A stretch of DNA of 64,000 bases from Nitrosopumilaceae archaeon (GTDB lineage: Archaea > Thermoproteota > Nitrososphaeria > Nitrososphaerales > Nitrosopumilaceae): positions 640,001 to 704,000 of the forward strand of contig OZ242376.1 in assembly GCA_965209085.1 (NCBI GenBank). Reading direction: 5' to 3'. The notes beneath the pieces were generated by a model. That model saw only the letters and a program-made list of their open reading frames with translations, did no database searches and had not been told where the DNA came from. Both the position numbers and the translations under genes were made by a program. Below, in pieces: positions 1 through 57,246 of this stretch (the stretch's first letter is position 1; every line of letters begins with the position of its first letter).

Positions 1-2930
1 TCTAGGTACAACCTATACAATGAACATATCTGGCACAACTGCAACTGCGACTGTAACAGTAACTGCACTATCTTCAGAGGGGAATGTCACCTTTGATATC
101 ACAGCAGCTGATCTTGCAGAAAACACTCTGAGTGCAAATCACACAAATCTAAACTCTTCAAACGTCACAATAGACCGCACAAACCCACAGCTGATGAATC
201 TGACCATATACAGCGACAACCATGTCCCATCCTTTGCAACCTTGAACGATAATCTGACCATAACAATTACCGCCAATGAGGCACTCAAAGCGGCAGACAT
301 TGCGGTTCTAGGTACAACCTATACAATGAACATATCTGGCACAACTGCAACTGCGACTGTAACAGTAACTGCACTATCTTCAGAGGGGAATGTCACCTTT
401 GATATCACAGCAGCTGATCTTGCAGGAAACACTCTGAGTGCAAATCAGATAAATCTAACATCTTCAAACGTCACAATAGACCGCACCGCACCAAGTGGTG
501 TAAATCTCATAGTTCACAGCGACAATGCGGACCCGACGCTTACAAAGGCAGGCGATGTGATAAACATCACCCTAATGGCAGCAGAACCAATCATGAATGC
601 AACTTTACAAATATTTGATAATGACAATATAACCATGACTGTAACAAATGATACTGCGTCTGCAAACATTCCCGTCCCGCAAAATGCTTCAAACGGACAG
701 ATAATGTTCAACATTACAGCAGAAGATATCTCTGGCAATACATTTTCTGTAACACAGGCAAACATCACATCCGGCGAAGTCCGAGTTGATACAATAGATC
801 CGAAACTGACAAACCTGAGCATATCCAGTGACAATTCAAACTCTACTATTGCAACCATAAACGATACTTTAACCATAACAATTACCGCCGATGAGGCACT
901 CAAAGGGGCAAACGTTACGGTTCTAGGTACAACCTATACAATGAACATAAACAATGACACTGCAAGTGCAAACGTAACGGTAAACTCGACAAATCCTGAA
1001 GGAAACGTCACATTTAACATCACAGCCTTTGATCTTGCAGGAAACATTCTGAGTGCAAATCACACAAATCTAAACTCTTCAAACGTCACAATAGACCGCA
1101 CAAACCCACAGCTGATGAATCTGACCATATACAGCGACAACCATGTCCCATCCTTTGCAACCTTGAACGATAATCTGACCATAACAATTACCGCCAATGA
1201 GGCACTCAAAGCGGCAGACATTGCGGTTCTAGGTACAACCTATACAATGAACATATCTGGCACAACTGCAACTGCGACTGTAACAGTAACTGCACTATCT
1301 TCAGAGGGGAATGTCACCTTTGATATCACAGCAGCTGATCTTGCAGGAAACACTCTGAGTGCAAATCACACAAATCTAAACTCTTCAAACGTCACAATAG
1401 ACCGCACCGCACCAAGTGGTGTAAATCTCATAGTTCACAGCGACAATGCGGACCCGACGCTTGCAAAGGCAGGCGATGTGATAAACATCACCCTAATGGC
1501 AGCAGAACCAATCATGAATGCAACTTTACAAATATTTGATAATGACAATATAACCATGACTGTAACAAATGATACTGCGTCTGCAAACATTCCCGTCCCG
1601 CAAAATGCTTCAAACGGACAGATAATGTTCAACATTACAGCAGAAGATATCTCTGGCAATACATTTTCTGTAACACAGGCAAACATCACATCCGGCGAAG
1701 TCCGAGTTGATACAATAGATCCGAAACTGACAAACCTGAGCATATCCAGTGACAATTCAAACTCTACTATTGCAACCATAAACGATACTTTAACCATAAC
1801 AATTACCGCCGATGAGGCACTCAAAGGGGCAAACGTTACGGTTCTAGGTGAATTATATACAATGGCCATATCTGGCACAACTGCAACTGCTACTGTAACA
1901 GTAACTGCACTATCTTCAGAGGGGAATGTCACCTTTGATATCACAGCAGCTGATCTTGCAGAAAACACTCTGAGTGCAAATCAGATAAATCTAACATCTT
2001 CAAACGTCACAATAGACCGCACAGATCCCAAATTGACAGACCTGACAGTGTCTAGCAACAACCGTAACTCTGCCTTTGCAACCATAAACGATACTTTAAC
2101 CATAACAATTACCGCCAATGAGGCACTCAAAAATGCCAGTTTTACATCTCTAAATATCACCGATATTATGATCATAAACGGCTTCACTGCAAGTGTAAAC
2201 GTAACGGTAACTGTTGAAGCTCCCCAAGGGATCGTCAACTTTACCATCACCGCTTTTGATCTTGCAGGAAACAACCTGAGAGTAAACCAAACAAATAGCT
2301 CTAAAAACATCACAATAGACTCTGACATACCAACAGTGGGAATTCTGATTTTGAATAGCAGTAACGCCAATGCGTTACTTGCAAAGGCTGGAGACATGAT
2401 AAACATCACCTTGAGTGTATCTGAGGAAATCAACAACGCGACCCTATCCATCTTAAATCGCGGCCTCATCAACATGATTGTGGATAACATTACTGCCACT
2501 GCCAACATCATAGTTAAATCAAACGATAAAAACGGACCGGTTGAATTTACCATCACAGTATATGATATTGCCGGCAACACATTTAGCGTAACACAAGATT
2601 CCAACTCATCCCTCAACTTTGTAATCGATACGGCTGATCCAAGTCTGACAAACTTGGCCATATCCAGCAGCAACTCTAACCCTGCCCTTGCAACCATAGG
2701 CGATACCCTGACCCTAACAATCACCGCCGATGAGGCACTCAAAAAAGCCAACGTTACGGTTCTAGGTACAACCTATACAATGAACATAAACAATGACACT
2801 GCAAGTGCAAACGTAACGGTAAACTCGACAAATCCTGAAGGAAACGTCACATTTAACATCACAGCCTTTGATCTTGCAGGAAACATTCTGAGTGCAAATC
2901 ACACAAATCTAAACTCTTCAAACGTCATAA
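1..2930 (+). repeat. Near-identical intragenic DNA repeats (about 306-bp units; 921-bp higher-order repeat)
   Basis: Sequence at 132 recurs at 1053 (921 bp apart); 1-180 recurs from 307; the block at about 911-1090 recurs at about 2749-2925. Confidence 0.85.
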
Positions 2931-5614
2931 TAGACTACACAGACCCAGTTTTGACAAACCTGATCATATCCAGCAGCAACCCCACCTCTACTCTTGCAAC
3001 CATAAACGATATTCTAACCATAACAATTACAGCCGATGAGACACTCAAAAAAGCAAACGTTACGATTCTAGGTACAACCCACATAATGCGCATAAACGGT
3101 AACACTGCAAGTGCAGACGTTACAGTAAACGGTCAAGACCCAGAAGGGCAGGTCACATTTAACCTCACAGCATTTGATCTTGCAGAAAACACCATGACTG
3201 AAGATCATACAAATCTAAACTCTGCAAACGTCACAATAGATTACACCATACCTGCAGTGGTCCACCTATCCGTGAACAGCAGCAACCCTGACCCATCGCT
3301 TGCAAAAGCTGATGATATACTAAACCTCACTTTGAGAGCATCAGAGCAAATCAATAATGCAACCGTGCAAATCATGGGCAATCTTATCAACATGAGCGTA
3401 AATAACGATACTGCCACTGCAAACGTTACGGTTTTACAAAACGGTACAAACGGAAATGCCACATTCACCATTACAACGTATGATAATGCCGGAAACGAGC
3501 TTGTCATAACGCAGGCAAGTCTCACATTCAGAAACGTCGTAATAGATACGGCAAACCCGCAGCTAGAAGATCTGAGAATATATAGTAATAATAACAGAAC
3601 CGATTATGCACAAACTGGCCAAATGTTAAACATTACAATTACCGTCGATGAGACACTCCAAAGTGCAAACATTACAATTCTAAACTCCACTTATACTATG
3701 ACAGTAAACGGCGCTGTGGCAAATGCAACTCTGATCATAGGTGAAAATCCTCAAGAAGGACTTGTATCCTTTAACATTACAACATTTGATCTTGCAGGAA
3801 ACAATATGAGTGCAAACCACACGAATCTGGAATCCTCAAACGTCATTATAGACAACATACAGCCTACAATAAGTCTTATCGGAGCCGAGACGGTGTTAGT
3901 GTCGCTTGGTATACTGTATGCTGATGAGGGAGCAAGTACAGCCGATGTGGACCCTGAATATGGAAACACCATAATATATACAATCTTTAGAAACATGACG
4001 GCAGAAACCACCATACCTGGAACGTACGTACTGCAATACGAGGCACCAAATGATATGGCAGGAAACGTGGGCTTGAAAATAAACAGAACCATTCATGTGA
4101 TAAACCATACTGATACTGAATCTCTCACTCTTGACACCGCCTCTACTGACTCAAACTCATCAGTATCCATATTCCCTACTGAGAAAGCTCAGATAGACGT
4201 TGATGATTCAGGACGCAACTATACAATTATCGTATACTCACCTAGTGTATTGCTAAATCTGACCGCGGCTGCAACGTTTGATCTGATCGAGAATACAACT
4301 GGCCAAAACAATACCATCACCGTGAAAACAAACACGCACCCACTTGTAGTAATAGTCAATCCGTCAATAACAGTATACGTCCAAAGTAATACCAACATAT
4401 CCTCACTGGAAAATTCCAATGCCAGCGACAGCTTTGTCTTTGTTCACGTAAGCAATGACCATGTATATCTAGGCTCCAATGATGCCTCTTTTGAATTTGA
4501 AAACAATGCCCTAAGAATTGTCTTTACGGATCTGCCTCATAATTGGATACCAATGTACAAAAATCACACACGCGAGTCATTCAGCAATATTGTAGAATAT
4601 AAAAACTCAGCCATTGCAATAAACAACGCATCACAAGCGCTTGAAATCCTGAATAATGATTCATCATATTATGGTTCAATGTATGTGCGCGACGGCTCTA
4701 CGGTCACAATATGGACTGCACACGCATCAAATTGGACAGGTACTACCCCCGTAATTATAGAGCCGACACCTGCCCCCGTCATTACAGAGCCGACACCTGC
4801 CCCCATCATTAGAGCCGGCGGCGGTAACAGCAGAAGCGGTGGAAGCGGTGGTGGTGGCGGTGGTGGCGGCGGCACCATTACCAGCGAAACCCCGTATACG
4901 CTGATACCAACTGGAAGGATTACCATACAGGCAGAATCTGATGCATACAGTCCTGGAGGAATAGTAAAGGTTGCCGGCATACTGATAGATTCACTCACAC
5001 CATTCCCGATTACATTAAAGGTGACAAATGCTCTTGGAAATCTCATAAACATAGGCCAGATAATGCCAAATAATGATTCCACATGGTCATACCAGTTCAA
5101 ACTCTCTCCAAAGGCAAAGGATGACACATACTTTGTAAGCGTACTGTATGCAAAGGCAGTAGCTCAGATCAACTTTACCGTAGACTCTAAACTCCACGCA
5201 TACCCTACTCTGAAAACAGTTGAAATCACAGACTATGATATTACAGGAGGTACAGTACTTGGAATATATACAAATTATGAGACAGGCTCTGTATTGGTAA
5301 AAATAAACGCAACCGAGGATGGCATACTTGGAATCTCTTTGCTTCGAGCTGTCATAAACTCGACTGGCAATAATACACTTGACAAGGAATTCTTCGTTAC
5401 AGTTGATGATGAAATCAACTCTTTTGAAGAAGTTGAGAGTACCTCTGAATACAGGAGATTAAACATAGAGTTTTCAGCTGGTGCACAGTCGATAGAAATA
5501 ATCGGTACAAGCGTGATACCTGAATTTGGAACCGTGGCACTGGCAATCTTGGCAGTTGCCCTGATATCCGTTACTGCCATTACATCAAGACTGGTACGCA
5601 ATCCGATAGAATAA
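2..5614 (+). CDS. Giant repetitive cell-surface protein with Ig-like repeats and a PEFG-CTERM sorting signal (5' end outside the window)
   Basis: Frame is open from position 2. About 100-aa Thr/Asn-rich repeats (D-x-T-x-P...A-x-D-L-A-G-N), many N-x-T/S sequons, a Pro-Thr and Gly-rich linker, and C-terminal VIPEFG + hydrophobic helix + basic residues. Confidence 0.85.
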   Translation, partial: LGTTYTMNISGTTATATVTVTALSSEGNVTFDITAADLAENTLSANHTNLNSSNVTIDRTNPQLMNLTIYSDNHVPSFATLNDNLTITITANEALKAADIAVLGTTYTMNISGTTATATVTVTALSSEGNVTFDITAADLAGNTLSANQINLTSSNVTIDRTAPSGVNLIVHSDNADPTLTKAGDVINITLMAAEPIMNATLQIFDNDNITMTVTNDTASANIPVPQNASNGQIMFNITAEDISGNTFSVTQANITSGEVRVDTIDPKLTNLSISSDNSNSTIATINDTLTITITADEALKGANVTVLGTTYTMNINNDTASANVTVNSTNPEGNVTFNITAFDLAGNILSANHTNLNSSNVTIDRTNPQLMNLTIYSDNHVPSFATLNDNLTITITANEALKAADIAVLGTTYTMNISGTTATATVTVTALSSEGNVTFDITAADLAGNTLSANHTNLNSSNVTIDRTAPSGVNLIVHSDNADPTLAKAGDVINITLMAAEPIMNATLQIFDNDNITMTVTNDTASANIPVPQNASNGQIMFNITAEDISGNTFSVTQANITSGEVRVDTIDPKLTNLSISSDNSNSTIATINDTLTITITADEALKGANVTVLGELYTMAISGTTATATVTVTALSSEGNVTFDITAADLAENTLSANQINLTSSNVTIDRTDPKLTDLTVSSNNRNSAFATINDTLTITITANEALKNASFTSLNITDIMIINGFTASVNVTVTVEAPQGIVNFTITAFDLAGNNLRVNQTNSSKNITIDSDIPTVGILILNSSNANALLAKAGDMINITLSVSEEINNATLSILNRGLINMIVDNITATANIIVKSNDKNGPVEFTITVYDIAGNTFSVTQDSNSSLNFVIDTADPSLTNLAISSSNSNPALATIGDTLTLTITADEALKKANVTVLGTTYTMNINNDTASANVTVNSTNPEGNVTFNITAFDLAGNILSANHTNLNSSNVIIDYTDPVLTNLIISSSNPTSTLATINDILTITITADETLKKANVTILGTTHIMRINGNTASADVTVNGQDPEGQVTFNLTAFDLAENTMTEDHTNLNSANVTIDYTIPAVVHLSVNSSNPDPSLAKADDILNLTLRASEQINNATVQIMGNLINMSVNNDTATANVTVLQNGTNGNATFTITTYDNAGNELVITQASLTFRNVVIDTANPQLEDLRIYSNNNRTDYAQTGQMLNITITVDETLQSANITILNSTYTMTVNGAVANATLIIGENPQEGLVSFNITTFDLAGNNMSANHTNLESSNVIIDNIQPTISLIGAETVLVSLGILYADEGASTADVDPEYGNTIIYTIFRNMTAETTIPGTYVLQYEAPNDMAGNVGLKINRTIHVINHTDTESLTLDTASTDSNSSVSIFPTEKAQIDVDDSGRNYTIIVYSPSVLLNLTAAATFDLIENTTGQNNTITVKTNTHPLVVIVNPSITVYVQSNTNISSLENSNASDSFVFVHVSNDHVYLGSNDASFEFENNALRIVFTDLPHNWIPMYKNHTRESFSNIVEYKNSAIAINNASQALEILNNDSSYYGSMYVRDGSTVTIWTAHASNWTGTTPVIIEPTPAPVITEPTPAPIIRAGGGNSRSGGSGGGGGGGGGTITSETPYTLIPTGRITIQAESDAYSPGGIVKVAGILIDSLTPFPITLKVTNALGNLINIGQIMPNNDSTWSYQFKLSPKAKDDTYFVSVLYAKAVAQINFTVDSKLHAYPTLKTVEITDYDITGGTVLGIYTNYETGSVLVKINATEDGILGISLLRAVINSTGNNTLDKEFFVTVDDEINSFEEVESTSEYRRLNIEFSAGAQSIEIIGTSVIPEFGTVALAILAVALISVTAITSRLVRNPIE

Positions 5615-24575: not shown

Positions 24576-25238
24576 AATATCATATTTTAGATTAAACAAA
24601 CGAAATCACTCATCTTGCCATTTGTTTGGAGATAATCTGTCAGATGTGACATCTTGGCTCAAACTGTTTATTTTTATCATCTGGCTTTAAAAATCACATC
24701 CAGTACGAGCTAATTATAAAGCTAGAAATACGATAAATTTGATCAAGGCAAATTTTCTCTCAAAAGGTACAGATTACCTAGTTCCAAAATAATCAAAACG
24801 CGTAAAAAATGGAAATACTTTACTTCGTAATCTGCCGATAAATTTTCCAAAATCCAGTGAAAATGCGATAACCGTGGTCTCTAATGTATTTTTTATAGAA
24901 GAATCATGATCAATTGTTTTTATCATCCATCGATCAATAACACATTCGGACAAAACCACAAATCCTGCCCAAGATGCCGTAAAACTCCAAGAAACTAGTT
25001 TGGCGAATGAGAGTCCGATAAAAATTATTGAGTCCATCAACAAAGTTTCTGTTATATTTGGATAGTTGTAGAAACTGTTTTTTGTGAATATTTGGCAAGA
25101 TGGAATCCCCCAACGACCATCTGAAAAACCGTTTGTAGCTTCTAGATCCATTTCTCCACCAGTTGTGATGCACTATTGCATTATGCACTACTTTGAATCG
25201 TTTTTTTGTCCTTTTAGTATGTGTAAACAAAAATCAAT

Positions 25239-26535
25239 AGGCCTTATGCATAATCAATCACTGAGACATACGGTTCCGACTATGACGCTGTCATGATCAA
25301 AGTACACATGGCCTAAAACCTTCAAGCAGACAACAAAATAAATCAAAATATCATATGCATGACAAAAAGCAGAATATTATGCGTGACTGTATGCACAAAG
25401 ATGTGCTACTTGATTTGAGCGCAAACTTTTTCCAACGGTTCGATATACTTGCGATCCTTTAACATGATGTGCAGATTGGTCAGTCCTGTAACCACTTGGA
25501 TTTCTGTATAAAACGCATCCATTGTATCATCATATACGGCACTCATTCTGCGGAACCATTTGAGCCGGTTTATGGCATGCTCTACTTTTATGCGCTTACG
25601 ACTGATTCTCTTGCTGTATTCACGTTCTGTCTCTGTCAATCCCTTACCCTTTGGTTTTTTGTACGGCTGCTTTGAGATAATGCCCCGATAGTCTTTTTCC
25701 ACGGACAGATATCCCTTGTCAGTATATAGCATAATTTGGCGCTCTTTTTTTGTATCAGAGTTTTTCATGCCATTGGTCCATTTGCCAAAATTTGGCGGAT
25801 TACGCCGCAGTACCTCCATGTCATGTACTGAGCCATCTTCAGGTCCGCCAATGTCAAGTACCAACCCGTCTTTGTTTGAGGTTATCTGTACGTTGTAGAC
25901 GTGCCTCTTACGCTTTCCAGAGTATACTACCTCTTGGTTTTCCTGCGGTCTTTGAACCTGTACAAACGTGGCATCAAGATATAGCTCGCCGCCGCCTCTG
26001 CCGGGTACGAATTTTTTAAACAACTCGCTTGTACGTATTGTCCGTATTGCAGCACCAATATTCTTAGCCGTTGGAAGAATATTCATCAACAATTCATCAG
26101 AAAAGGTCAGATATCTGCTGATGGTGCTCTGATCAACGCCTGCAATGGCCGCAAGCAATTCCTGTTTAGGATTGTTGCGTTTGCGGCACAGTGTGACAAA
26201 CAAAATTTGAGATGCAGTGAGAATACAGGTGTTTCCAGGATCGTCGACATCATCTGAAAAGCGGGGGACCTTGGGCGAATATTCGATAACTTTTTCAAAC
26301 CGTTCCTGAATCCATTCAAACTCTTCACGGTTCATTCCAGTCGTCCCGTACAAATAATTGTCATCGTCAATTATGTGGTTCAAATATTCGTAGGCAGATT
26401 GTTGCTTTTCGACCTCATTATCATGTATCGTTTTTTTGTAGTGTTGAATTTCTGCTTCAAGCTTGGAGATCATCTCTGTTTGCTGGGCGATTATACGCTT
26501 GTCTGGGGCACACATGCTGTACGAATGTGATACTA
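25239..26535 (-). mobile_element. IS5-family element A (transposase 25406-26515), left end lost at an IS110 junction
   Basis: DATF..QRP, YSGK, G.VHD, DKGY, R..VEH motifs; TIR AGGCCTTATGCATAAT; nearly identical to 55289-56643. Confidence 0.88.
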
Positions 26536-27867
26536 ACCATATGTGCCCAAGAAATCAAGGAATTCAGATGGTTGCTTAAATGATAAATCCGTATCAGTCA
26601 ACAAACGCAAGCCCAAAAACAAAGCTCAAAATGCAAACAAAAACACTAGGGTGTTTAAGAGCAAGTCCATGTTTGTTGGAATTGACTCCCATAAAGAATT
26701 TCTCCAGATAGCAGCAATTGACGGCAAAGGCAAACTGATCTTAAACACGCGTGTTGAAAACAGACACGCGGACATTAGAAAGTTTTTCCAAATAAGCATA
26801 CCCGAGGGTTCAAAGATGGTAATGGAGTCATCATCTGTCTGGTACGGACTGTTCCGATACATGACCGACAGACTGGATCTTGATGTGATTCTCTCAAACC
26901 CATATCAGACAAAGGCCATTGCCGCATCCACTAAAAAAACAGACAAAGTTGATGCGCAAATTTTGGCAAATTTGCTGCGAGGAGGATATATCAACGAGTG
27001 CTATGTTCCAGGTAAAAAGATTGTAGAGCAAAGACAACTGGTCCGATACAGGCACAAACTTGTACAGGCGAGAACAAATATGAAAAATTCCATACATGGA
27101 ATACTGCTCCAAAAAGGAATTAAAATTCCAGGACGTACGTTTTCGTACAAATACATTGCAAGCCTTTAAGCCATAAACGACTATCGAATAGACGGTTTTC
27201 TTGCATCCATTGGCCTTTATGACAATCAGATACAAAAAGCCAATGTACTGATCTACAAGTGCACGTACAAGCCGGTATGCCGATATACTCAAAACTGTCC
27301 CAGGAATTGCAGATTTTACGGCATTAACGATTGCATCTGAGATTGATAATGTTGAGAGATTCTCTGATCCTGAAAAGCTAAAATCATACGTAGGACTTGC
27401 ACCATCGGTCCGCAATTCTGCCAATCTCGTACATCATGGACACATAACAAAAAGAGGAAGCAGAATGCTCAGGTGGGTTCTAGTTGAGGCAATACGCTCG
27501 CACGTACTACATGCACCAAAAAGTGACATTTCAATATTTTACAAGCGGCTTGCAAGAAAGAGAGGAAACTCCAAGGCTGCAGTTGCAGCAGCTGGAAAAA
27601 TGCTAAAGGTGATTTACTGGTTACTAAAGGAGAATCGGGATTTTGAACAAAATTACAGTTAGTTGCACGGCCGCGGCGCAGTATATGGAGATAGTGCTCC
27701 GAGATTCTAACTGCGGTAAGCTCTAACAAGTGGATGAAGATGGTTGTGGGGATAATGCCCCGAATGGATATATGTCTCTCATTCTTTAATTGGAAAAATA
27801 GCCCCTAGTGGATACTGTACAAAAATATGGAAAAACGCAAGGAATACTTAAAAAAGAGGCACATGGA
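26536..27867 (+). mobile_element. IS110/IS1111-type element, variant 2 (transposase broken by a stop and a frameshift)
   Basis: GIDSHK, MES, KTDKVDA (DEDD), GLAPSVRNS. Ends ACCATATGTG...CACATGGA flanked by TA; about 200-bp 3' non-coding region. Confidence 0.88.
27663..27867 (+). ncRNA. Putative bridge/seek RNA of IS110 variant 2
   Basis: CCGCG-[GCGCAGTATAT]-GGAG..CTCC-[GAGATTCTAA]-CTGCGG module, then an ATGGTT / GGGG..CCCC / ATGGATA module. Exact RNA ends unknown. Confidence 0.65.
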
Positions 27868-27869
27868 TA

Positions 27870-28987
27870 TACTGCGGATCAAAAGTAACTGCAATCTACA
27901 GCTTTTCTCATAACAAAATCCATTATTGATACTTTGAATCGTACAGTTCTAAAATATTCTGAAATTGTATATTTCATATTCTCAAATGTTTCATAATATT
28001 CAGTGACGGCCAACGCACGTTTGGCCTGATACCAACATTCTTCAACGGCACTCAGAAACGGTGAACTTGTAGGGAAAAACAAAAGCTTTACCTCATCTTT
28101 ATTCTCAGATATATATTTTTTAATAATTTTGGATTTTCTGTGTTGTGCAGTTCTATCCGTAATTATGCAAATTTTTCCAAATTTTTGATGAGCCATTTTT
28201 AAAAACTTGAGAAATGATTTTGCATCAAACAAATCATAGTTTGCAAACATCTGCCTGCTATCCGATAAGAGTACTCCAAAGACAACAATTTTTTTGTGAG
28301 AACCTGTGGATTTTACGTAACAATTTTTGCTTATTTCAATCCAGAGTTTCTTGCCGGATAATGAATCGTATTTTATTATACATTCATCCTGAACGCCTAC
28401 TGCAAATCCACGCTCTTCAAGTAGGCATATTTGACGCCTAGTGTTTTGCGACCAGTTGTAGCAGACTGATGCCGGCGCTGCATTGACATGAATTCTTTTT
28501 GGAGCCTTGCTGACAAATGAGAATTTGTGGAGTCTTTTTCTGATGTTTGATATGTGATATTTTACTCCGGTTTTGCGTTTAATGTTGTGCATTACCTGTT
28601 TTGGATCAACTGAACCGTTCTCTCGTCTTGTCATGTCAATAATTTTTTTAAATCGTATATTTGATAATAATAAAGGCCTGCCCGATTTGGGCAGGGTTTT
28701 AAGACCGTCTAATCCAAGCTCGTCATATCGTTGCATGCATTCTTTGCCCCAGTTGTAGCTTTTCATCAGTAATTCCGAAGCTTTAGCTATATGGGGATGT
28801 TTTGGTATTTGACCATGCTTACAAGATATATTTTTGATATCTCTTTTCTGTCTTTGACATGCCTGCTTGCATTATACAGTTCCTGATGTTCTTTGTTCAT
28901 GATTGATTCATACCCGAGGTGATCCAAATATCTTGCGGTTACATTGTGCCTAGAGTCATAAATTGCAGTTACTTTTGCGTGTCAGTA
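27870..28987 (-). mobile_element. IS630-family element 2 (ORF 27879-28766; 5' part frameshifted)
   Basis: QDE, DRTAQH, SPFLSAVEECW; TIRs TACTG....CAAAAGTAACTGCAAT with TA flanks. Confidence 0.8.
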
Positions 28988-28989
28988 TA

Positions 28990-32891: not shown

Positions 32892-33060
32892 ACCATATGT
32901 GCCCAAGAAATCAAGGAATTCAGATGGTTGCTTAAATGATAAATCCGTATCAGTCAACAAACGTAAACCCAAAAGCAAAGCTCAAAATGCAAACAAAAAC
33001 ACTAGGGCATTTAATAGGAAATCTATGTTTGATGGAATCAACACCAATAAAGAATTCCTT
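32892..33060 (+). mobile_element. Left-end fragment of IS110 variant 2
   Basis: Nearly identical to 26536-26700; preceded by TTC-TA. Confidence 0.85.
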
Positions 33061-33142
33061 GATTTCTTGGGTACATATGGTTATGTAGGACATTATTTAG
33101 ATCAAACATACCAAAAAATGCAAAGAACGTCTTGGAATCATC

Positions 33143-35618: not shown

Positions 35619-37119
35619 AGAGTTTATCCATGCGAATACTTTAAAGATTTCTTGATTTTCGGTGTCATGCGATATGGCTTTCGCTATGTGTCTGTTTCTA
35701 GTCAAAAGATACAAGACATCTATCCATTCGGGATTTAATCCCACAACCATCTTCATCTACATGTTAAAGATTACCGCAGTTATGCCGCCGAGGTAACATC
35801 CCCAAAGTCTAACCCGCGGTTTGTTGCTTTAACTATGATGTATTTCAAATTCACTCCTATCCTTTAGCATACGAAATATGACATCAAGCATCTTGGCCGC
35901 TGCTGCAACTTTGGCCTTGGATGATCCTCTCTTTTTTGCAAGACGCCGGTAAAATTCAGAAATGTTCCTCTCTGATGAAAATTGGACATGAGTGGTATAC
36001 TGCCGCTCATAAATAAATGCAATTTTTGAAGCATGTTAACATTAGGACTAGGCGTGAATAATTGCAGTTACTTTTGAGTGGCAGTATAATAGCTTCCACC
36101 AGTGCTCACCGCATCATCCTACTTCCTCTTTTTGTTATATGTCCGTGATGGACCACATCTCTGAATTGTGAACAGATGGGGCAAGACCAGCATATGATGT
36201 GAGTTGTTTTGGTTCAGAAAACCTCTCAATTCCATCAATTTCTGCTGCCAGTATCAATGAAATAAAATCCACTATGCCAGGTATTGTCTTGAGCAACATT
36301 GCATCCTTGTTTGAACAGGATGCGTTGTGCACCTTTATGTTTGAATCTGCAATTTTTGTATTAACGAATCCAATAGAATCCAAATATCCGTTTATACGAT
36401 AGTCCTTTAGAAAACGCAGTTTTTATTGTATGCAAGCGTAAATGTTACTCCAAAGATCTTTATCCTTCCCTGTAACAAAATTCCATATATTTTGTTTTTT
36501 TAGAGTTGTTCTTGTCTTGACAAGACTGTTGCGATATTGTACAAGTTGCTGTTGTTCCATTATGTCCTTGTTTGAGACATGACAGAGGGATATGTATCTG
36601 CAGCGTAATATGTCTGCAAGTGTTACAGCATCCCTCTTGTCAGTCTTTTTCTTGGATGCGGCGATGATTTTTGTAGCCCAATGATTTGACAATACGACAT
36701 CATAACCCATCTTGTCTGTCATGCATCGATTTAGTCTGTATCATACGGATGAAGATTCCATGACGATTTTTGCATTTTCAGGTACGCTTGATCAGATGAA
36801 TAATCTGATGGACTTGTTTTCATTTTCAATCCTCTCATTAAAAATCACTTTAGCTTTTTTATCCATCATTGCAATTTGGAGAAATTTCTTGTGAACGTCC
36901 ATTCCCACAAACATATCCTTCCCAGAATATGTGGTAATCTGTTTGTTTACATTTGGATCTTTTTTAGATGATTTACGTCTCGGTAATACGGATCGTTTGA
37001 CATTCTGACAACCATCGATGGTCTTAGAATCTTTCTTCACATATGGTTATGCATAATGAGCCAAATTCACAATTTTTACGAATAAAAATGACCGATTTGA
37101 ACGATTATGTATACGATCT
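35619..37119 (-). mobile_element. MITE interrupted in its TIR by a degenerate IS110 variant 1 (35627-37047)
   Basis: AGAGTT-TA-[IS110]-TA-TGCATAAT...GATCT; the transposase has several stops. Confidence 0.88.
35996..36089. mobile_element. About 90-bp IS630-derived MITE nested in the IS110 copy
   Basis: Absent from other IS110 copies. Ends TATACTGCC.CTCA / TGAGTGGCAGTATA resemble the TIRs of IS630 element 2; TA duplication. Confidence 0.8.
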
Positions 37120-42032: not shown

Positions 42033-42081
42033 ATCTGTCAATATCGGTCTAATAATATAATTCTAAATATAATGGACCTTA

Positions 42082-43413
42082 TCCATGTGAATATTTTTTA
42101 AACGTTTCTTGCTTTTTTGTGTCATGCGGTATGGCTTTCGCTATGTGTCTGGTTCCAACCAAAAGATGAAAAGACATTTACCCATTCGGGATTTAATACC
42201 ACAACCATCTTTATCCACATGTTAAAGCTTACCGCAGTTATACAGCCGGGGTAACATCCCCAAAGTCTAACCCGCGGTTTGTTGCTTTAACTATGATGTA
42301 TTTCAAATTCACTCCTATCCTTTAGCATACAAAATATGACATCAAGCATGTTGGCCGCTGCTGCAACTTTGGCCTTGGATGATCCTCTCTTTTTTGCAAG
42401 ACGTCGGTAAAATTCAGAAATGTTACTCTCTGATGCAAATCAGACATGGGTGGTAACAGCTTCCACCAGTGCCCACCGTATCATCCTGCTGCCTCTTTTT
42501 GTTATATGTCCATGATGTACCACATCTGCTGAATTGCGAACCGATGGGGCAAGACTCGCATATGATTTGAGTTGTTTTGGTTCAGAAAACCTCTCATTTT
42601 CATCAATCTCTGCTGCCAGTACCAATGAAATAAAATCACCTATGCCAGGTATTGTCTTGAGCAACATTGCATCCTTGTTTGAACAGGATGCGTTGTGTAC
42701 TTTTATGTTTGAGTCTGCAATTTTTGTATTAACGAATCCAATAGAATCCAAATATCCGTTTATACGGCAATCCTTTAGAGAACGCAGTTTTCTATTGTAT
42801 GCAAGCGTAAATGTTGCTCCAAAGATCTTTATCACTCCCTGTAACAAAATTCCATGTATTTTGTTTTTTAGAGTTGTCCTTGTCTTGATAAGACTCACGA
42901 TATCGTACAAGTTGTCGTTGTTCCACTATGTCCTTGTTTGAGACATGACAGAGGGATATGCATCCACACCGTAATAGGTCTGCAAGTGTTACAGCATCCC
43001 TCTTGTCGGTCTTTTTCTTGGATGCGGCGATGATTTTTGTCGCCCATGGATTTGACAATACGACATCATAACCCATTTTATCTGTCATGTATCGATATAA
43101 TCCGTACCATACGGACGAAGATTCCATTACGATTTTTGCATTTTCAGGTACACTTGATCTGAAGAATCGGCTGATGGACTTGTTTTCATTTTCAATCCTC
43201 TCATTAAAAATCACTTTGGCTTTTTCATCCATCATTGCAATTTGGAGAAATTTCTTGTGAACGTCCATTCCAACAAACATATCCTTCCCAGAATATGTGG
43301 CAATCTGTTTGTTTACATTTGGATCTTTTTTAGATGATTTACGTTTCGGTGATACGGATCGTTTGACATTCTTACAACCATCTGTGGTCTTAGAAGCTCC
43401 CTTCACATATGGT
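42082..43413 (-). mobile_element. IS110 variant 1, pseudogenised
   Basis: Same ends and TA flanks as other copies. One flank is TIR-like (GGACCT). Shares its frameshift and premature TGA with 46400-47730. Confidence 0.9.
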
Positions 43414-43890
43414 TATAACTGATAGAAAAGGTGATGCGCTACAGCTTTCCAGTCTACTAGAGGATGCAAAAAACGTTCTCGGGAAACGACCTGTGCTAAA
43501 CGGGGATGGAAGTTATGATTCAAAGGAGAATTTTAATTATTGTCACAGGCTGGAAGTGGATGCAAGAATTAAAGTTAGCATAAACTCTGGGTTAAATGCT
43601 GGAGGATTTGCACGCAATTCCCCAGTACGGGATCAGCTCGGTGGATGAAAAGATCGCTAACGTATAATGCACATACGCAAAGATGAGATGATACACAATA
43701 GGATCGAGTGGAAAAACGTGTGCATTATGGACGGAGATGGATAACAGAGGTAGTTTTTTCAGCGTTTAAGAAAATCTTTGGTGATTCTGTATACTCTAAG
43801 AAATGGGACAATATTGTCCAGGAGATTCGAATAAAAGTATCAGCATATTGGCTGTTTCTAGTGACGATCTGTATTGATTTTTGATTCAAA
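43414..43890 (+). pseudogene. IS5 (IS903-like) transposase C-terminal remnant
   Basis: GDGSYDS, and HYGRRWITEVVFSAFKKIFG in a shifted frame. Confidence 0.65.
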
Positions 43891-46342: not shown

Positions 46343-47737
46343 TCGTTCAAATCGGTCATTTTTATTCGTAAAAATTGTGAATTTGGTTCATTATGCATAA
46401 CCATATGTGAATAGAGCTTCTAAGACCACAGATGGTTGTAAGAATGTCAAACGATCCGTATCACCGAAACGTAAATCATCTAAAAAAGATCCAAATGTAA
46501 ACAAACAGATTGCCACATATTCTGGGAAGGATATGTTTGTTGGAATGGACGTTCACAAGAAATTTCTCCAAATTGCAATGATGGATGAAAAAGCCAAAGT
46601 GATTTTTAATGAGAGGATTGAAAATGAAAACAAGTCCATCAGCCGATTCTTCAGATCAAGTGTACCTGAAAATGCAAAAATCGTAATGGAATCTTCGTCC
46701 GTATGGTACGGATTATATCGATACATGACAGATAAAATGGGTTATGATGTCGTATTGTCAAATCCATGGGCGACAAAAATCATCGCCGCATCCAAGAAAA
46801 AGACCGACAAGAGGGATGCTGTAACACTTGCAGACCTATTACGGTGTGGATGCATATCCCTCTGTCATGTCTCAAACAAGGACATAGTGGAACAACGACA
46901 ACTTGTACGATATCGTGAGTCTTATCAAGACAAGGACAACTCTAAAAAACAAAATACATGGAATTTTGTTACAGGGAGTGATAAAGATCTTTGGAGCAAC
47001 ATTTACGCTTGCATACAATAGAAAACTGCGTTCTCTAAAGGATTGCCGTATAAACGGATATTTGGATTCTATTGGATTCGTTAATACAAAAATTGCAGAC
47101 TCAAACATAAAAGTACACAACGCATCCTGTTCAAACAAGGATGCAATGTTGCTCAAGACAATACCTGGCATAGGTGATTTTATTTCATTGGTACTGGCAG
47201 CAGAGATTGATGAAAATGAGAGGTTTTCTGAACCAAAACAACTCAAATCATATGCGAGTCTTGCCCCATCGGTTCGCAATTCAGCAGATGTGGTACATCA
47301 TGGACATATAACAAAAAGAGGCAGCAGGATGATACGGTGGGCACTGGTGGAAGCTGTTACCACCCATGTCTGATTTGCATCAGAGAGTAACATTTCTGAA
47401 TTTTACCGACGTCTTGCAAAAAAGAGAGGATCATCCAAGGCCAAAGTTGCAGCAGCGGCCAAGATGCTGGATATCATATTTCGTATGCTAAAGGATAGGA
47501 GTGAATTTGAAATACATCATCGTTAAAGCAACAAACCGCGAGTTAGAGTTTGGGGATGTTACCCCGTTGCATAACTGCGGTAAGCTTTAACATGTGGATA
47601 AAGATGGTTGTGGGATTAAATCCCGAATGGATAGATGTCTTTTTACCTTTTGACTGGAAACAAACACATAGCGAAAGCCATACCGCATGACACAAAAAAG
47701 CAAGAAACCTTTAAAAAGTATTCACATGGATAACTCT
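46328..47737 (+). mobile_element. MITE interrupted in its TIR by IS110 variant 1 (46400-47730, pseudogenised)
   Basis: AGACCGTATGCATAAT...ATTATGCA-TA-[IS110]-TA-ACTCT. Confidence 0.9.
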
Positions 47738-48402: not shown

Positions 48403-49180
48403 ATGCCGATTAATGTGTCATCCCAAACGATTCTTGGACAAAAATGTTTGCGAGAATTAAACATATGGTCAATAAACGATTCACTAGACGTTATTTCGTT
48501 CCTAAATGACAGGATTTACCAATTGGATCTTCGAATACGTAAAAAAGCAGAAAATGGCAAATATGCAAAAATCCTTATCACCATGCCTGGAATATCATAC
48601 TATTCGGCACTTTCTATATCTGCAGAGATTGTAGACATTGACAGATTTGAAAACCATGAACACTTGTGTTCATATGCACGATTGATTCCAAGAGTGTATC
48701 AATCTGGGGAAAAGCTAGAGATGCGCGCTGTAGGAAAACGTGGAAGTCAAATGCTCAGCTGGATGACTGTACAATGCATGTTTGTTCACAGAAAAAATTG
48801 TCCAAATTCGGTAATCACCATACACTACAACAAGATAGCAGAAAGACGCAACAAATCAAAGGCAAAGATCGTAGCGGCTAGAAAGATGATGAAAATCATC
48901 TATGTAATGCTAAAAGAAAACACATCTTTTAGACATGATGGATAAGTGGACGGCATAAAGGCCCATAACGTTCTTGTACTACAAGTGCGTGAATGAGGTC
49001 GGGTCCATAATGCCGCATAAGCGAAAACCACGATGCGTTTGGAACGTGAATAGTAGTATGCGATCCATCTGATTCAAAATCCACAAATGTGGAGACTGAC
49101 CCATAGCGATAGATATGCACCGTTTTAAACAAAACCGTGTAAGTTTATAACAAAATGACTCCAATCGTTCATAGGAGAAC
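48403..49180 (+). mobile_element. Third, divergent IS110 element: C-terminal transposase fragment (48403-48945) plus 3' non-coding region
   Basis: TMPGI, AEIVDIDRF, SYARLIPRVYQSG, AARK (Transposase_20-like). Right boundary approximate. Confidence 0.75.
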
Positions 49181-52874: not shown

Positions 52875-53558
52875 AGATGCCTTGCGTAATAAAGAAATTC
52901 GATCATGCAGTCCAAACTTTTAGATCACATCGATCTATTTTCATGCATATTTACGGTGTTTTGTGTTCTCAGAAACGACAATGCGCAAAAAACCGCATGC
53001 ATTCAAGGCGTTTACCGGTCTTACGGTCGAAGAATTTGATTCCTTGATTCCTGGCATACGTAAAAAATATCTTGAATGCCAGCTGGATGTTGCAGATGCA
53101 GCAGAAAGACAACGAAGTCCAGGAGGAGGCAGGAAACATCACTTGTCACTGCCAGATCGGTTAATAATGACGCTTGTTTATTTACGAGAATACCAGTCGT
53201 ATGAAAAAATAGGATACATGTTTGACTTGGATCAAAGTAATGTACAACGAAACATAGGCATGATTCTAAAGATATTGGCAGATATTCTTCCAACTCCACA
53301 TAAACTACACAAACAAGTTTTAGAAATAAAATCTTCCAAAGATCTTGAAAAGAATTTTCCAGACAATTATTGCGTTACAGATGCTACAGAACAACGGGTA
53401 TGGCGTCCAAGTGACAAGGAAGAACAAAAGAAAAACTATTCTGGCAAGCACAAAACACATACTAGAAAAACAACAGAAGTCATAAACGGAAACGGAATGA
53501 TCTTGTATAGCTCAATGTCATATCCTGGCAGTGTACACGATTATGCCATTAGACCGTA

Positions 53559-53762
53559 TCCATGTGAATACTTTTTAAAGGTTTCTTGCTTTTTTGTGTC
53601 ATGCGGTATGGCTTTCGCTATGTGTCTGGTTCCAACCAAAAGATAAAAGACATCTATCCATTCGGGATTTAATCCCACAACCATCTTCATCTACATGTTA
53701 AAGCTTACCGCAGTTATGCAGCCGGGGTAACATCCCCAAAGTCTAACCCGCGGTTTGTTGCT
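53559..53762 (-). ncRNA. Putative bridge/seek RNA of IS110 variant 1
   Basis: Target-like loop at 53707-53754 (TTAGACTTT / TGCATAA); donor-like loop at about 53646-53688 (ATGGTT / ATGGATA). Confidence 0.7.
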
Positions 53763-54884
53763 TTAACGATGATGTATTTCAAATTCACTCCTATCCTTTA
53801 GCATACGAAATATGATATCCAGCATCTTGGCCGCTGCTGCAACTTTGGCCTTGGATGATCCTCTCTTTTTTGCAAGACGCCGGTAAAATTCAGAAATGTT
53901 ACTCTCTGATGCAAATCGGACATGTGTGGTAACAGCTTCCACCAATGCCCACCGCATCATCCTGCTGCCTCTTTTTGTTATATGTCCGTGATGGACCACA
54001 TCTGCTGAATTACGAACCGATGGGGCAAGACCCGCATATGATTTGAGTTGTTTTGGTTCAGAAAATCTCTCAACTCCATCAATCTCTGCTGCCAGTATCA
54101 ATGAAATAAAATCACCTATGCCAGGTATTGTCTTGAGCAACATTGCATCCTTGTTTGAACAGGATGCGTTGTGTACCTTTATGTTTGAGTCTGCAATTTT
54201 TGTATTAACGAATCCAATAGAATCCAAATATCCGTTTATACGGTAATCCTTTAGAGAACGCAGTTTTCTATTGTATGTAAGCGTAAATGTTGCTCCAAAG
54301 ATCTTTATCCCTCCCTGTAATAAAATTCCATGTATTTTGTTTTTTAGAGTTGTTCTTGTCTTGACAAGACTGTCGCGATATCGTACAAGTTGCCGTTGTT
54401 CCATTATATCCTTGTTTGAGACATGACAGAGGGATATGTATCCGCATCGTAACAGATCTGCAAGTGTTACAGCATCCCTCTTGTCGGTCTTTTTCTTGGA
54501 TGCGGCGATGATTTTTGTCGCCCATGGATTTGACAATACGACATTATAACCCATTTTATCTGTCATGTATCGATATAGACCGTACCATACGGATGAAGAT
54601 TCCATTACGATTTTTGCATTTTCAGGTACGCTTGATCTGAAGAATCGACTGATGGACTTGTTTTCATTTTCAATCCTCTCATTAAAAATCACTTTGGCTT
54701 TTTTATCCATCATTGCAACTTGAAGAAATTTCTTGTGAACGTCCATTCCAACAAACATATTCTTCCCAGAATATGTGGTAATCTGTTTGTTTGCATTTGG
54801 ATCTTTTTTAGATGATTTACGTTTCGGTGATACGGATCGTTTGACATTCTTACAACCATCTGTGGTCTTAGAAGCTCTCTTCAC
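53763..54884 (-). CDS. IS110-family DEDD transposase/recombinase, intact
   Basis: 373 aa; GMDVHK, MES, KTDKRDA, IPGIG, YAGLAPSVRNSA, AAAKML. Confidence 0.95.
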   Translation of the reverse strand: MKRASKTTDGCKNVKRSVSPKRKSSKKDPNANKQITTYSGKNMFVGMDVHKKFLQVAMMDKKAKVIFNERIENENKSISRFFRSSVPENAKIVMESSSVWYGLYRYMTDKMGYNVVLSNPWATKIIAASKKKTDKRDAVTLADLLRCGYISLCHVSNKDIMEQRQLVRYRDSLVKTRTTLKNKIHGILLQGGIKIFGATFTLTYNRKLRSLKDYRINGYLDSIGFVNTKIADSNIKVHNASCSNKDAMLLKTIPGIGDFISLILAAEIDGVERFSEPKQLKSYAGLAPSVRNSADVVHHGHITKRGSRMMRWALVEAVTTHVRFASESNISEFYRRLAKKRGSSKAKVAAAAKMLDIIFRMLKDRSEFEIHHR

Positions 54885-55288
54885 ATATGGTTATGCATAA
54901 TCGTTCAAATCGGTCATTTTTATTCGTAAAAATTGTGAATTTGACCCATTATGCATAAAGTCTATTGTGAAAGAGAATCACCCACTGCAGTGTGAAAACA
55001 AAATTACGCAGGATCTGCTGAATTCTGTCTCAAATCTCTATGATAGCGCATATCAGGGAATACATGACGCGTTTCCACAAGCAAATTCGATTATACCCTG
55101 TAAAAAATATAAAAACAAAAAGAGAACCCGTGAACAAATATTTCACAATAAATTACTCTCAAGCGTACGTGTGCGGATAGAACATGTTTACAGCAGAATT
55201 AAGAAATTCAACATACGCCGAGATGTATTCCGATCCCGATTTGATAAATATGATGGAATCGTGCAGGTTGTAAACGGATTAATAAATT

Positions 55289-56643
55289 AGACCTTATGCA
55301 TAATTAACCAAAAAATCAATTTTGACAAATCGAAAGATCTATGATCTAGTATCACATTCGTACAGCATGTGTGCCCCAGACAAGCGTATAATCGCCCAGC
55401 AAACAGAGATGATCTCCAAGCTTGAAGCAGAAATTCAACACTACAAAAAAACGATACATGATAATGAGGTCGAAAAGCAACAATCTGCCTACGAATATTT
55501 GAACCACATAATTGATGATGACAATTATTTGTACGGGACGACTGGAATGAACCGTGAAGAGTTTGAATGGATTCAGGAACGGTTTGAAAAAGTTATCGAA
55601 TATTCGCCCAAGGTCCCCCGCTTTTCAGATTATGTCGACGATCCTGGAAACACCTGTATTCTCACTGCATCTCAAATTTTGTTTGTCACACTGTGCCGCA
55701 AACGCAACAATCCTAAACAGGAATTGCTTGCGGCCATTGCAGGCGTTGATCAGAGCACCATTAGCAGATATCTGACCTTTTCTGATGAATTGTTGATGAA
55801 TATTCTTCCAACGGCTAAGAATATTGGTGCTGCAATACGGACAATACGTACAAGCGAGTTGTTTAAAAAATTCGTACCCGGTAGAGGCGGCGGCGAGCTG
55901 TATCTTGATGCCACGTTTGTACAGGTTCAAAGACCGCAGGAAAACCAAGAGGTAGTATACTCTGGAAAGCGTAAGAGGCACGTCTACAACGTACAGATAA
56001 CCTCAAACAAAGACGGGTTGGTACTTGACATTGGCGGACCTGAAGATGGCTCAGTACATGACATGGAGGTACTGCGGCGTAATCCGCCAAATTTTGGCAA
56101 ATGGACCGATGGCATGAAAAACTCTGATACAAAAAAAGAGCGCCAAATTATGCTATATACTGACAAGGGATATCTGTCCGTGGAAAAAGACTATCGGGGC
56201 ATTATCTCAAAGCAGCCGTACAAAAAACCAAAGGGTAAGGGATTGACAGAGACGGAACGTGAATACAGCAAGAGAATCAGTCGTAAGCGCATAAAAGTAG
56301 AGCATGCCATAAACCGGCTCAAATGGTTCCGCAGAATGAGTGCCGTATATGATGATACAATGGATGCGTTTTATACAGAAATCCAAGTGGTTACAGGACT
56401 GACCAATCTGCACATCATGTTAAAGGATCGCAAGTATATCGAACCGTTGGAAAAAGTTTGCGCTCAAATCAAGTAGCACATCTTTGTGCATACAGTCACG
56501 CATAATATTCTGCTTTTTGTCATGCATATGATATTTTGATTTATTTTGTTGTCTGCTTGAAGGTTTTAGGCCATGTGTACTTTGATCATGACAGCGTCAT
56601 AGTCGGAACCGTATGTCTCAGTGATTGATTATGCATAAGGCCT
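55289..56643 (+). mobile_element. IS5-family element A, intact (transposase 55322-56476)
   Basis: TIRs AGACCTTATGCATAAT / ATTATGCATAAGGCCT; ATT duplication; DDE motifs. Confidence 0.92.
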
Positions 56644-57246
56644 ATTACAAAAATGAGTGGGCACGCTCATTATAATATCATACTGCACGCCAGATATTGA
56701 CCAGATGTACATGTTGTCGTGTGGATTTGCAAACCTACATCGTTCCAACATGAATTACTGCAAACGGTGATCACATAATTGACATATGTGGCATATTGTC
56801 TCAGATTAACTGTAAATCATATTCCAGAATGTGATTTTTTAACATAACACTTTAATTATTAGGCATAATATGTTGTTATGTCGAATTTTTTATTACGCAA
56901 GACATCTACTATACCCCAAAGCATTAATTCGTTTAAAAAAACCGTCAATATTATCATAATATGACGAAGTTATAGATGTAAAAAACATGAATCATTTATG
57001 AACGTTATTCAGAATTTAAATGAATTTATGATCTGCGGTATAGAACGTTCTTTTTTGTACGCTTTTTCAAGTTGTTCTAATTTGTTCATGTGTATTGCAA
57101 TAATTTGGAGATCCAAATACTTTTCGGTTCGATAAATTTAGCTCATGAACTTTTGCGTGTGGCTAAAGAATGTCAAACTTTCTAACATGCGTTTTGACAT
57201 GGAAAATGCAGAGTAAAAGCGTCTTTGAAGAGGTGCTCAGTATAGT

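Follow-up and report, generated by a model that had tools for sequence, protein, structure and literature searches.

An IS1111-group element of an ammonia-oxidising archaeon with a predicted guide RNA for an IS630-family terminus

An IS110-family element lies directly against the terminus of an IS630-family element in a stretch of 64,000 nucleotides from a Nitrosopumilaceae archaeon (the window; bases 640001-704000 of a single-contig genome of 1.69 Mb), and the question raised by this locus is what placed it there. The genome encodes archaeal AmoA, and the host is therefore an ammonia-oxidising archaeon; many insertion sequences are packed into the region of the window. In the initial annotation, the element, here called variant 2 (v2), was regarded as a naturally reprogrammed sister of a second element in the same genome (variant 1, v1), with the same donor specificity and a different target guide matching an IS630 end, and this view held up. 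From sequence comparison, v2 is likely to be an IS1111-group element whose predicted guide RNA directs it beside the terminus of the IS630-family element, here called IS630-2. Positions are those of the window unless a genome position is given.

Insertion of variant 2 at IS630-2 ends

The element had originally been placed at 26528-27880. An IS110-type element is present there, and its proper span is the slightly shorter one given in Table 1, with a TA core dinucleotide just outside of each end. Both recombinase domains were recognised, the DEDD (RuvC-like) domain PF01548 with 88.8 bits against a cut-off of 29 (26543-27166) and the Transposase_20 domain (IS116/IS110/IS902) PF02371 with 80.7 bits against a cut-off of 21.3 (27252-27659), and v2 therefore belongs to the IS110 family. 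Its left end (LE) reads ACCATATGTG and its right end (RE) CACATGGA-TA. The subterminal repeat ATGTGCC pairs with GGCACAT, v1 carrying ATGTGAA/TTCACAT at the equivalent places, and is followed outwards by terminal extensions of 3 nt on the right (GGA) and 5 nt on the left (ACCAT; 7 nt with the core TA). For the IS1111 group, repeats of usually 11-13 bp and terminal extensions of usually 7 bp left and 3 bp right are described (PMC11187229), and a range of 7-17 bp is given for subterminal inverted repeats (PMC11208160); the 7-bp repeat of v2 is below the usual length and inside this range. A long non-coding region downstream of the transposase gene, which also marks the group (PMC11187229), is present with ~205 nt from the v2 stop to the RE (27867), and the upstream part measures 7 to ~130 nt, according to the start codon assumed. 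At the sequence level, v2 shows all characters of the IS1111 group except autonomy, as its reading frame is interrupted.

A BLAST search of the whole genome identified four full v2 copies, in the window and at 730 kb, 857 kb and 1173 kb, with 98.1-100% identity; the copy at 730 kb is interrupted at v2 position 974 by a different insertion sequence of 1110 bp (genome 731146-732255). Collecting the v2 copies of the genome, as had been proposed, revealed that all four share the right junction with the L-end of IS630-2, each with a different IS630-2 copy. The junction reads GGA-TA-(T)ACTGCGGATCAAAAG, insertion is in a single orientation and only TA is repeated (4/4 copies), which makes the insertion site-specific.

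The right flank had been described as an IS630 terminus, and this was confirmed by a DDE_3 transposase (54.1 bits against a cut-off of 28.6; HTH_32 and HTH_33 stayed below their cut-offs), terminal inverted repeats and a TA duplication. IS630-2 measures 1118 bp and has the inverted repeats TACTGCGGATCAAAAGTAACTGCAAT and TACTGACACGCAAAAGTAACTGCAAT, with termini TACTG...AAAAGTAACTGCAAT; complete copies have TA on both sides, and the element was assigned to the IS630 family. The terminus of its L-end, TACTGCGGATCAAAAGTAACTGC, is the right half of the v2 target.

In the genome, 7 L-ends and 8 R-ends of IS630-2 were counted, of which four L-ends and none of the R-ends are occupied by v2. Empty L-ends are found at 1091 kb, at 1361 kb and, with one mismatch, in a partial copy at 580 kb. 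They read flank-TA-TACTGCGG, and occupied ones read flank-TA-(v2)-TA-TACTGCGG; from this comparison, the shared core is therefore exactly TA, the target duplication of IS630. The right junction was also correctly reported to match the guide, as 27867-27877 reads ATATACTGCGG and its reverse complement CCGCAGTATAT agrees with the right-target guide at 10/11 positions. The reverse complement of the guide itself, ATATACTGCGC, reads A-TA-TACTGCG, that is, the TA duplication followed by the IS630 terminus. A guide match of 7 nt past the core at a fixed register has a chance probability of ~6e-5 and recurs at all four full copies. The terminus of the R-end, TACTGAC, matches the right guide of v2 at only 5/7 positions.

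Which of the two elements came first can be approached from their divergence. Pairwise differences are 0.5-1.6% among v2 copies and 1.4-4.7% among the adjacent IS630-2 copies, and by identity the empty IS630-2 copies are interspersed among the occupied ones, the IS630-2 of the window being closest (98.65%) to an empty copy. Therefore, v2 appears to have arrived later and independently, and four separate insertions beside pre-existing IS630-2 copies are favoured. As all four full v2 copies adjoin IS630-2 in the same orientation, it might be argued that both form one composite unit that was copied together, leaving the guide match without a role. This is very improbable, as the outer end of v2 carries no IS630-type inverted repeat, the left boundary is exactly the LE as defined by homology to v1, divergence between v2 copies is 2-4 times lower than between their IS630-2 neighbours, the closest relative of the IS630-2 in the window is an empty copy and 3/7 L-ends are empty. 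Hardly any credence can be given to the reverse order, in which IS630-2 inserted beside a pre-existing v2 and the guide complementarity is a coincidence. IS630-family elements do insert at TA, and a TA follows the right end of v2; however, IS630-2 would have had to insert four times independently, each time at this TA and with the same orientation, in addition to the chance match of 7 nt. Moreover, the DNA past the far ends of IS630-2 (TA-cttgg, TA-gtacg, TA-gagtc and TA-gtaga), where the original right target of v2 would then be expected, is unlike the guide, and the IS630-2 copies are more diverged, and hence older, than v2.

The predicted guide RNA and the two halves of its target

Four separate insertions of v2 at existing IS630-2 ends could be explained by an RNA encoded near the right end of v2. 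In the predicted layout, a basal stem (27658-27662 with 27723-27727) is followed by a target-binding loop (27671-27716) and a donor-binding loop (27732-27777), and the loops show complementarity to target and element ends, as in structured guide RNAs of this kind. Comparison with v1 reproduced what had been noted earlier: LE and RE are identical in both variants over ten terminal bases each, the donor guide cores ATGGTT and ATGGATA are shared, and the target strands differ. The stems carry compensatory changes, the inner target stem being GGGG/CCCC in v1 and GGAG/CTCC in v2, and the inner donor stem GGGA/TCCC and GGGG/CCCC, respectively. Across 21 distinct copies (2 of v2, 8 of v1 and 11 from a sister species), the RNAalifold consensus comprises 28 pairs in 6 helices with double-sided changes in 3/28 pairs, and 98.3% of the alignment cells are paired, compared with 30-47% if the partners are slid by 1-3 columns. 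A two-pair helix within the donor guides is probably spurious. At gathering thresholds, no Rfam family matched in the window.

According to the mechanism proposed, the recombinase (DEDD/RuvC-like and transposase domains) would act together with a bridge (seek) RNA derived from the non-coding 3' end of the element. The donor loop would read the joined element ends ATGGA-TA-ACCAT, as in v1, and the diverged target loop would read the TA duplication and the first 7 nt of the IS630-2 L-end. Recombination at the core TA would then insert v2 precisely where the flanking DNA meets the IS630 terminus and regenerate TA on both sides, so that the IS630 end would stay flanked by TA and no host gene would be newly hit. 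Recognition would proceed mostly via the right half and the core, and the left guide GAGATTC-TA, which is near the putatively ancestral GATGTTC-TA of the sister species, would contribute little. That the RNA is made and guides insertion is inferred.

Support for such a reading came from relatives. A search of 61 genomes gave matches only in this genome, in its one congener (the sister species, G001; 13 matches at 77-81%) and, weakly and without a comparable donor loop, in one other member of the family (G033). The RE of the G001 copies reads CACATAGAT(A/G), with which the sequence of their donor guide, ATAGAT(A/G), covaries. The 13 related 3' ends of this genome carry 6 other right-guide 7-mers, which were scored in the register of v2 (guide reverse complement equal to the last RE base, the core and 7 nt). 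Own guide and own right flank agreed at 6-7/7 positions in 9/13 loci, at 5/7 in one (L024) and at 3-4/7 in four. The mean of own pairs was 5.6/7 over 17 loci (4 of v2 and 13 of G001, misfits included) and that of 164 cross pairs 2.8/7; thus, the guide-flank covariation for which the initial annotation had proposed a test in related genomes was found. In the main G001 class, C or T at the first right-target position of the guide agrees with the flank in 8/8 cases. An offset of one TA relative to v1 had been noted as a caveat; the register indeed differs from that of v1, by 2 nt, yet this is no anomaly, as the G001 relatives use the same register as v2.

Insertions of the main G001 class lie within a palindromic repeat resembling a miniature inverted-repeat transposable element (MITE), GTATGAGGTCA...GTTC-TA-CATTTACGC...TGACCTCATAC, of which neither half varies; there, 4-5/6 positions of the left flank AAGTTC-TA agree with the 3' strand (G)ATGTTC-TA. 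That the lineage always targets IS630 ends was considered and could not be established, as an open frame of 293 aa, and no IS630-type terminus, lies to the right of the intact copy in G001 (L002). Guides of the type TACTTGC occur in G001, and an IS630 end might be their target; the one relative of IS630-2 in this genome is degenerate, with 68% identity, and has no readable termini. Two irregular right ends were seen in the same genome. At L014 (~1760-1800), the right end runs into sequence that normally follows the 3' guide of the donor loop, which looks like recombination with the element's own guide region, and L005 (1501-2123) contains two modules of RNA and right end 355 nt apart.

Several observations weigh against guidance of v2 by its own RNA. 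The copy at 1173 kb does not fit, as its junction GGA-TA-ACTGCGG is one T short; its IS630-2 is the most diverged. All four right junctions are the same repeat, and the guide-flank match of v2 is thus one sequence class despite four events. In G001, 4/13 loci misfit their own guide (L005a, L014, L022 and L026), which look rearranged or degenerate. Taken alone, the v2 RNA folds no better than shuffled sequences (z = -0.84; 37/200 shuffles equal), with the same architecture in its minimum free energy structure, and the structural support is therefore comparative and not thermodynamic. Every v2 copy is defective, and the left guide agrees with the left flanks of the four v2 copies at only 5, 2, 3 and 2 of 7 positions. 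Finally, the 9-mer TATACTGCG occurs 27 times in the genome (~13 expected), 4 times in the guides of v2 itself, 3 times at filled junctions and 20 times at empty sites, including 2 L-ends; a match of 9 nt is therefore insufficient. Selection against insertions in genes probably explains why only TATACTGCG sites adjacent to insertion sequences are filled.

The empty sites and the weak pairing of the left flank would also be compatible with recognition of the IS630 terminus, for instance of its inverted repeat, by the recombinase protein and not by the RNA, as more than pairing over 9 nt decides on occupancy; the complementarity of the loop would then be incidental. This is highly unlikely, given that relatives of the sister species at other targets have correspondingly different loops in the same register and that all v2 proteins are truncated. 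In addition, RNA guidance has been experimentally established for elements of the IS110 and IS1111 types (PMC11208160, PMC11187229).

Guidance by the RNA remains the preferred explanation, and the left half of the target needs separate consideration. The left flanks of v2 (..GTGATAC-TA in the window, ..AGCAACG-TA at 730 kb, ..CATACTC-TA at 857 kb and ..GCATACC-TA at 1173 kb) are mutually unrelated and have only C/G-TA in common, which fits a CTAG-like site preference of IS630; a C-TA-G bias is visible on both sides of IS630-2 copies. The earlier statement that the left guide matches the left flanks was correct as to the flank GTGATAC-TA and holds to some extent in the window, and did not extend to the other copies with their 2-3/7. 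The left neighbour is an IS5-like element (DDE_Tnp_4/HTH_Tnp_4) and not an IS630 one, and the later rearrangement invoked to explain flanks from two different elements is not needed: crossover takes place at the TA just outside the IS630 terminus, and the left flank is therefore arbitrary DNA, whatever IS630 landed in. A shared ..(C/G)ATAC.. in three of the left flanks was considered as a pairing signal and dropped, as the offsets differ.

At the 20 empty TATACTGCG sites, the left matches are all <=2/7, and the two best left matches among 24 sites are both occupied, a weak hint with a post-hoc p of ~0.02. Left pairing may help a little and is not required at the level of the IS621 screens. At two positions, the 3' strand of v2, GAGATTC-TA, differs from (G)ATGTTC-TA of G001, and position -1 of the left-target guide (C/G) varies among v2 copies; the left guide of v2 appears to be a little-changed inheritance that is not fitted to the present flanks. 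A single place in the genome matches both guides over 14 contiguous bases (1360575-1360590), and it is now empty. It is the R-end of an empty IS630-2 copy (1360582-1361691) and reads GAGATTC-TA-TACTGAC, with 7/7 for the left guide, the core and 5/7 for the right guide. GAGATTCTA occurs 10 times among 226,014 TA sites, and the chance of such a match among the 15 IS630-2 ends is ~0.0007, or ~0.005 given C-TA. At its opposite flank, this IS630-2 copy has GAGATTTCTAAC, 5 nt from the TA.

Table 1. Coordinates of the features discussed, in window positions.
Feature	Position	Strand	Remarks
IS5-like element, its end being the left flank of v2 in the window	25236..26533	-	99% identical to 55347-56646; many genomic copies
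Left core dinucleotide TA, also TA target duplication of the neighbouring IS630-family element	26534..26535	.	empty and occupied ends compared
v2 body, IS1111-type (IS110-family), LE to RE	26536..27867	+	ends identical in all copies
Left end: terminal ACCAT, then subterminal inverted repeat ATGTGCC (26541-26547)	26536..26547	+	
Recombinase, N-terminal part, DEDD_Tnp_IS110 domain	26543..27169	+	PF01548, E = 4e-25; ends at TAA 27167-27169
Recombinase, C-terminal part, Transposase_20 domain	27170..27662	+	PF02371, E = 1e-22; natural stop TAG 27660-27662
Predicted bridge/seek RNA	27655..27780	+	RNAalifold consensus, compensatory changes
Right-target guide (predicted), 5' target-loop strand GCGCAGTATAT	27676..27686	+	invariant in 4 copies
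Left-target guide (predicted), 3' target-loop strand GAGATTCTAA (GAGATTC-TA-A)	27701..27710	+	same sense as left flank and core
Left-donor guide (predicted) ATGGTT	27740..27745	+	reverse complement AACCAT = second core base and LE ACCAT
Right-donor guide (predicted) AATGGATATAT	27763..27773	+	ATGGA-TA = RE and core
Right end: subterminal repeat GGCACAT (27858-27864) and 3-nt terminal extension GGA	27858..27867	+	identical in 4 copies
Right core copy TA	27868..27869	.	
IS630-family element IS630-2	27870..28987	-	open reading frame 27879-28766 (-); TA duplication 28988-28989
Sister v1, reference copy	46400..47730	+	same ends and donor guides as v2; target guides GAGTTAGAGTT and GTTGCA-TA-A

The interrupted recombinase gene

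An in-frame TAA between both recombinase domains is common to all four v2 copies, and v2 is therefore a defective member of its family. The codon at this position is AAG (Lys) in the intact G001 copy and AAG in v1. A further lesion, a deletion of 2 nt near 27257 with a resulting frameshift, is confined to the copy in the window; contigs of other copies have AG there. The next in-frame start lies downstream of the segment ..APSVRNSA.., which presumably contains the catalytic serine. As judged from the interrupted gene, the extant v2 copies would be either immobile now or reliant on a helper recombinase.

One stop common to copies at different loci implies that v2 either moved with a helper after the stop had arisen or that the stop was spread by gene conversion. 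Three routes can be proposed for the spread of the defective copies, each of which is held only tentatively: mobilisation by the intact recombinase of v1, mobilisation by an intact v2 master copy that was later lost, or spread of intact copies into which the TAA was introduced later by gene conversion. Such routes are suggested by the presence of the TAA in 4/4 copies at different loci, with no in-frame start ahead of the region of the catalytic serine, and by the finding that only two IS110-type frames are open over 375 aa in the genome, both of them the intact 375-aa frames of v1. Among 102 protein matches, there was no intact relative of at least 365 aa with >67% identity to the N-terminal half of v2, which is weak evidence. 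For v1 as the helper speaks that termini and donor guides are common to both and that the RNA scaffold is 83% identical, compared with 65% for the whole element. On the other hand, some cross-targeting would be expected if protein and RNAs mixed freely, and none was found (0/12 v1 left ends at IS630-2 ends, 0/4 v2 copies at the v1 target); the subterminal repeats of v1 and v2 differ as well. The empty site at genome 1360575-1360590 with its perfect left-guide match could be the vacated site of a lost v2 master, although an intact v2 is known nowhere. Gene conversion would need a null allele to be fixed in every copy. As a candidate for the helper, a lost intact v2 is equally good as v1.

It is possible, though rather doubtful, that v2 is a parasite of its own family that bears a guide and no protein, its private bridge RNA redirecting the helper (v1 or a lost v2 master). 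The safe harbour of such a parasite would be set almost wholly by one half-site, TA and the IS630 terminus. The empty site could then represent the vacated launch pad of the master copy, which would fit reports that excision needs flanks matching the guides (PMC11187229, PMC13626964). Defective or miniature derivatives such as MITEPpu9 are thought to be mobilised by transposase in trans (PMC11187229, PMC12288879). Unlike MITEPpu9, v2 keeps a full-length gene interrupted by a nonsense codon and its own target guide, distinct from that of a possible helper.

Sister element, known systems and surroundings

v1 and v2 share 65% nucleotide and 57-60% amino acid identity, and the donor-strand region of the v1 reference copy lies at 47600-47640. 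The v1 target was read as TTATGCA-TA-AACTCTAA. Of its left ends, 11/12 adjoin ..ATGCA-TA, and AACTCTA.. or AGGTCTA.. is found on the right; the sites lie inside the terminal repeat of palindromic MITE-like repeats of 67-92 nt (families D19/D20) or in a similar IS5-like end. The guide of v1 occurs in two subtypes (reverse complements AAACTCTAAC and AAAGTCTAAC), whose correspondence to the two flank types is only partial. Ends of mobile elements are also targeted by v1, in the window (46400-47730, 42079-43416, 53557-54894 and 35624-37050) as well as genome-wide.

Both RNA-guided targeting and its diversification in nature are established (PMC11208160, PMC11187229); the mechanism is already known, and v2 is a clear natural example. 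Like IS621 of the IS110 group, v2 has two predicted internal RNA loops, the same guide-strand geometry, a 2-nt core and a donor loop that reads the joined ends. In IS621, one guide is paired to the left target and the core on their bottom strand, and the other to the core and the right target on their top strand (PMC11208160). In contrast to IS621, the RNA of v2 lies in the right (3') and not in the left end, the core is TA instead of CT and the subterminal repeats are longer. Insertions of v2 have occurred with 2-5 mismatches to the left target of 7 nt, whereas perfect matches were favoured in the IS621 screens (PMC11208160). With the seekRNA elements ISEc11 and ISPpu9, which target repetitive extragenic palindromic sequences, v2 shares a guide RNA encoded in the downstream non-coding region, and v1 and the main sister-species family resemble them in targeting repeated palindromic DNA.

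The closest parallel in target choice concerns IS4321 and IS5075, which Partridge and Hall are said to have described in 2003 as targeting the inverted repeat of another transposon. The likeness extends to the IS1111 type, the subterminal inverted repeats, the terminus of another transposon as the target and the single orientation. Unlike with IS4321 and IS5075, the host of v2 is an archaeon and the targeted element belongs to the IS630 family; crossover falls on the TA immediately beyond the terminus with only the right half constant, and the position in IS4321 and IS5075 is reportedly within the repeat. A target logo of IS4321 is mentioned in PMC11187229. In a limited search of the open-access literature, no paper was found on an IS110-family element aimed at IS630 ends and none on bridge RNAs in ammonia-oxidising archaea; archaeal or IS630-targeting members might be listed in the supplementary catalogues of PMC11208160 and PMC11187229.

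Particular to v2 are thus the archaeal host, an IS630 end as the target, crossover at the TA outside of the terminus and a defective element with a private guide. Two sisters with shared donor recognition and different targets in one genome amount to a natural experiment on the programmability of bridge/seek RNAs, to which the sister species adds further guide classes. One half-site and the core seem to carry most of the specificity. Two distal mismatches in the right target coincide with 0/8 occupied R-ends, whereas 2-5 mismatches on the left are tolerated, and natural tolerance of this kind can be of use in setting off-target rules for engineered bridge recombinases. The habit of the IS1111 group to target the ends of other transposons would be extended to ammonia-oxidising archaea, and v2 is a candidate for a defective, guide-carrying element that relies on a helper. 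If it is a parasite, natural bridge systems can split labour between elements, with a strongly asymmetric reading of the target.

Further searches for related loci contributed little. With the intact sister-species protein, two distant archaeal loci were found (39-44% identity), which were not used. The first pattern scan of metagenomes gave 0 matches and the second 1, a chance match in a high-GC coding region unrelated to IS110. Contigs from four DNA runs contained no joints and no piece spanning v2, and their loose ends were mostly flanks known from the genome; run X2 had two left-side loose ends with low agreement (0.65).

Several remnants related to v2 were noticed. At 32892-33081 (+), an older left end resembling that of v2 survives as a relic of 168 nt (91% identity), and behind it the LE tip is repeated in inverted orientation over 30 nt, so that a hairpin-like, MITE-like structure results. 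Its left flank had been reported to end in TTC-TA, and it does so, reading GTGTTC-TA, which resembles the left target AAGTTC-TA of the sister species. At genome 1569013-1569100 (-), a solo v2-type right end of 44 nt is followed by TA-TTGTTGCATAC; ahead of it lies a stretch similar to the inverted repeat of IS630-2 (..CCGATCAAAAGTTATGCAACTGCGT). A third variant is present in fragments only (genome 329539-329678 and 3232-3456); its right end has a degenerate donor loop and the flank TA-TACTCCCATCC, and its left end, ACCACATGTGCCCC, has 72% identity and the flank AAAC-TA. The insertion sequence of 1110 bp that interrupts v2 at 730 kb carries TACCTGCAAGCATAAATTCG... at its ends and is bordered by TA on either side; it has 8 matches in the genome including itself, 6 of them full length, and no frame of >150 aa was seen in it.

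More distant Transposase_20 matches with short open frames of 112-192 aa were found at 48403-48945 of the window and at genome 724208, 955161, 1300610 and 1530223, which suggests other decayed IS110-family lineages in this genome. Finally, the window contains two long arrays of diverged tandem repeats (38-3900 and 57570-63160, with periods of ~306 nt and 162 nt), both of which probably lie within genes for very large repeat-domain proteins.

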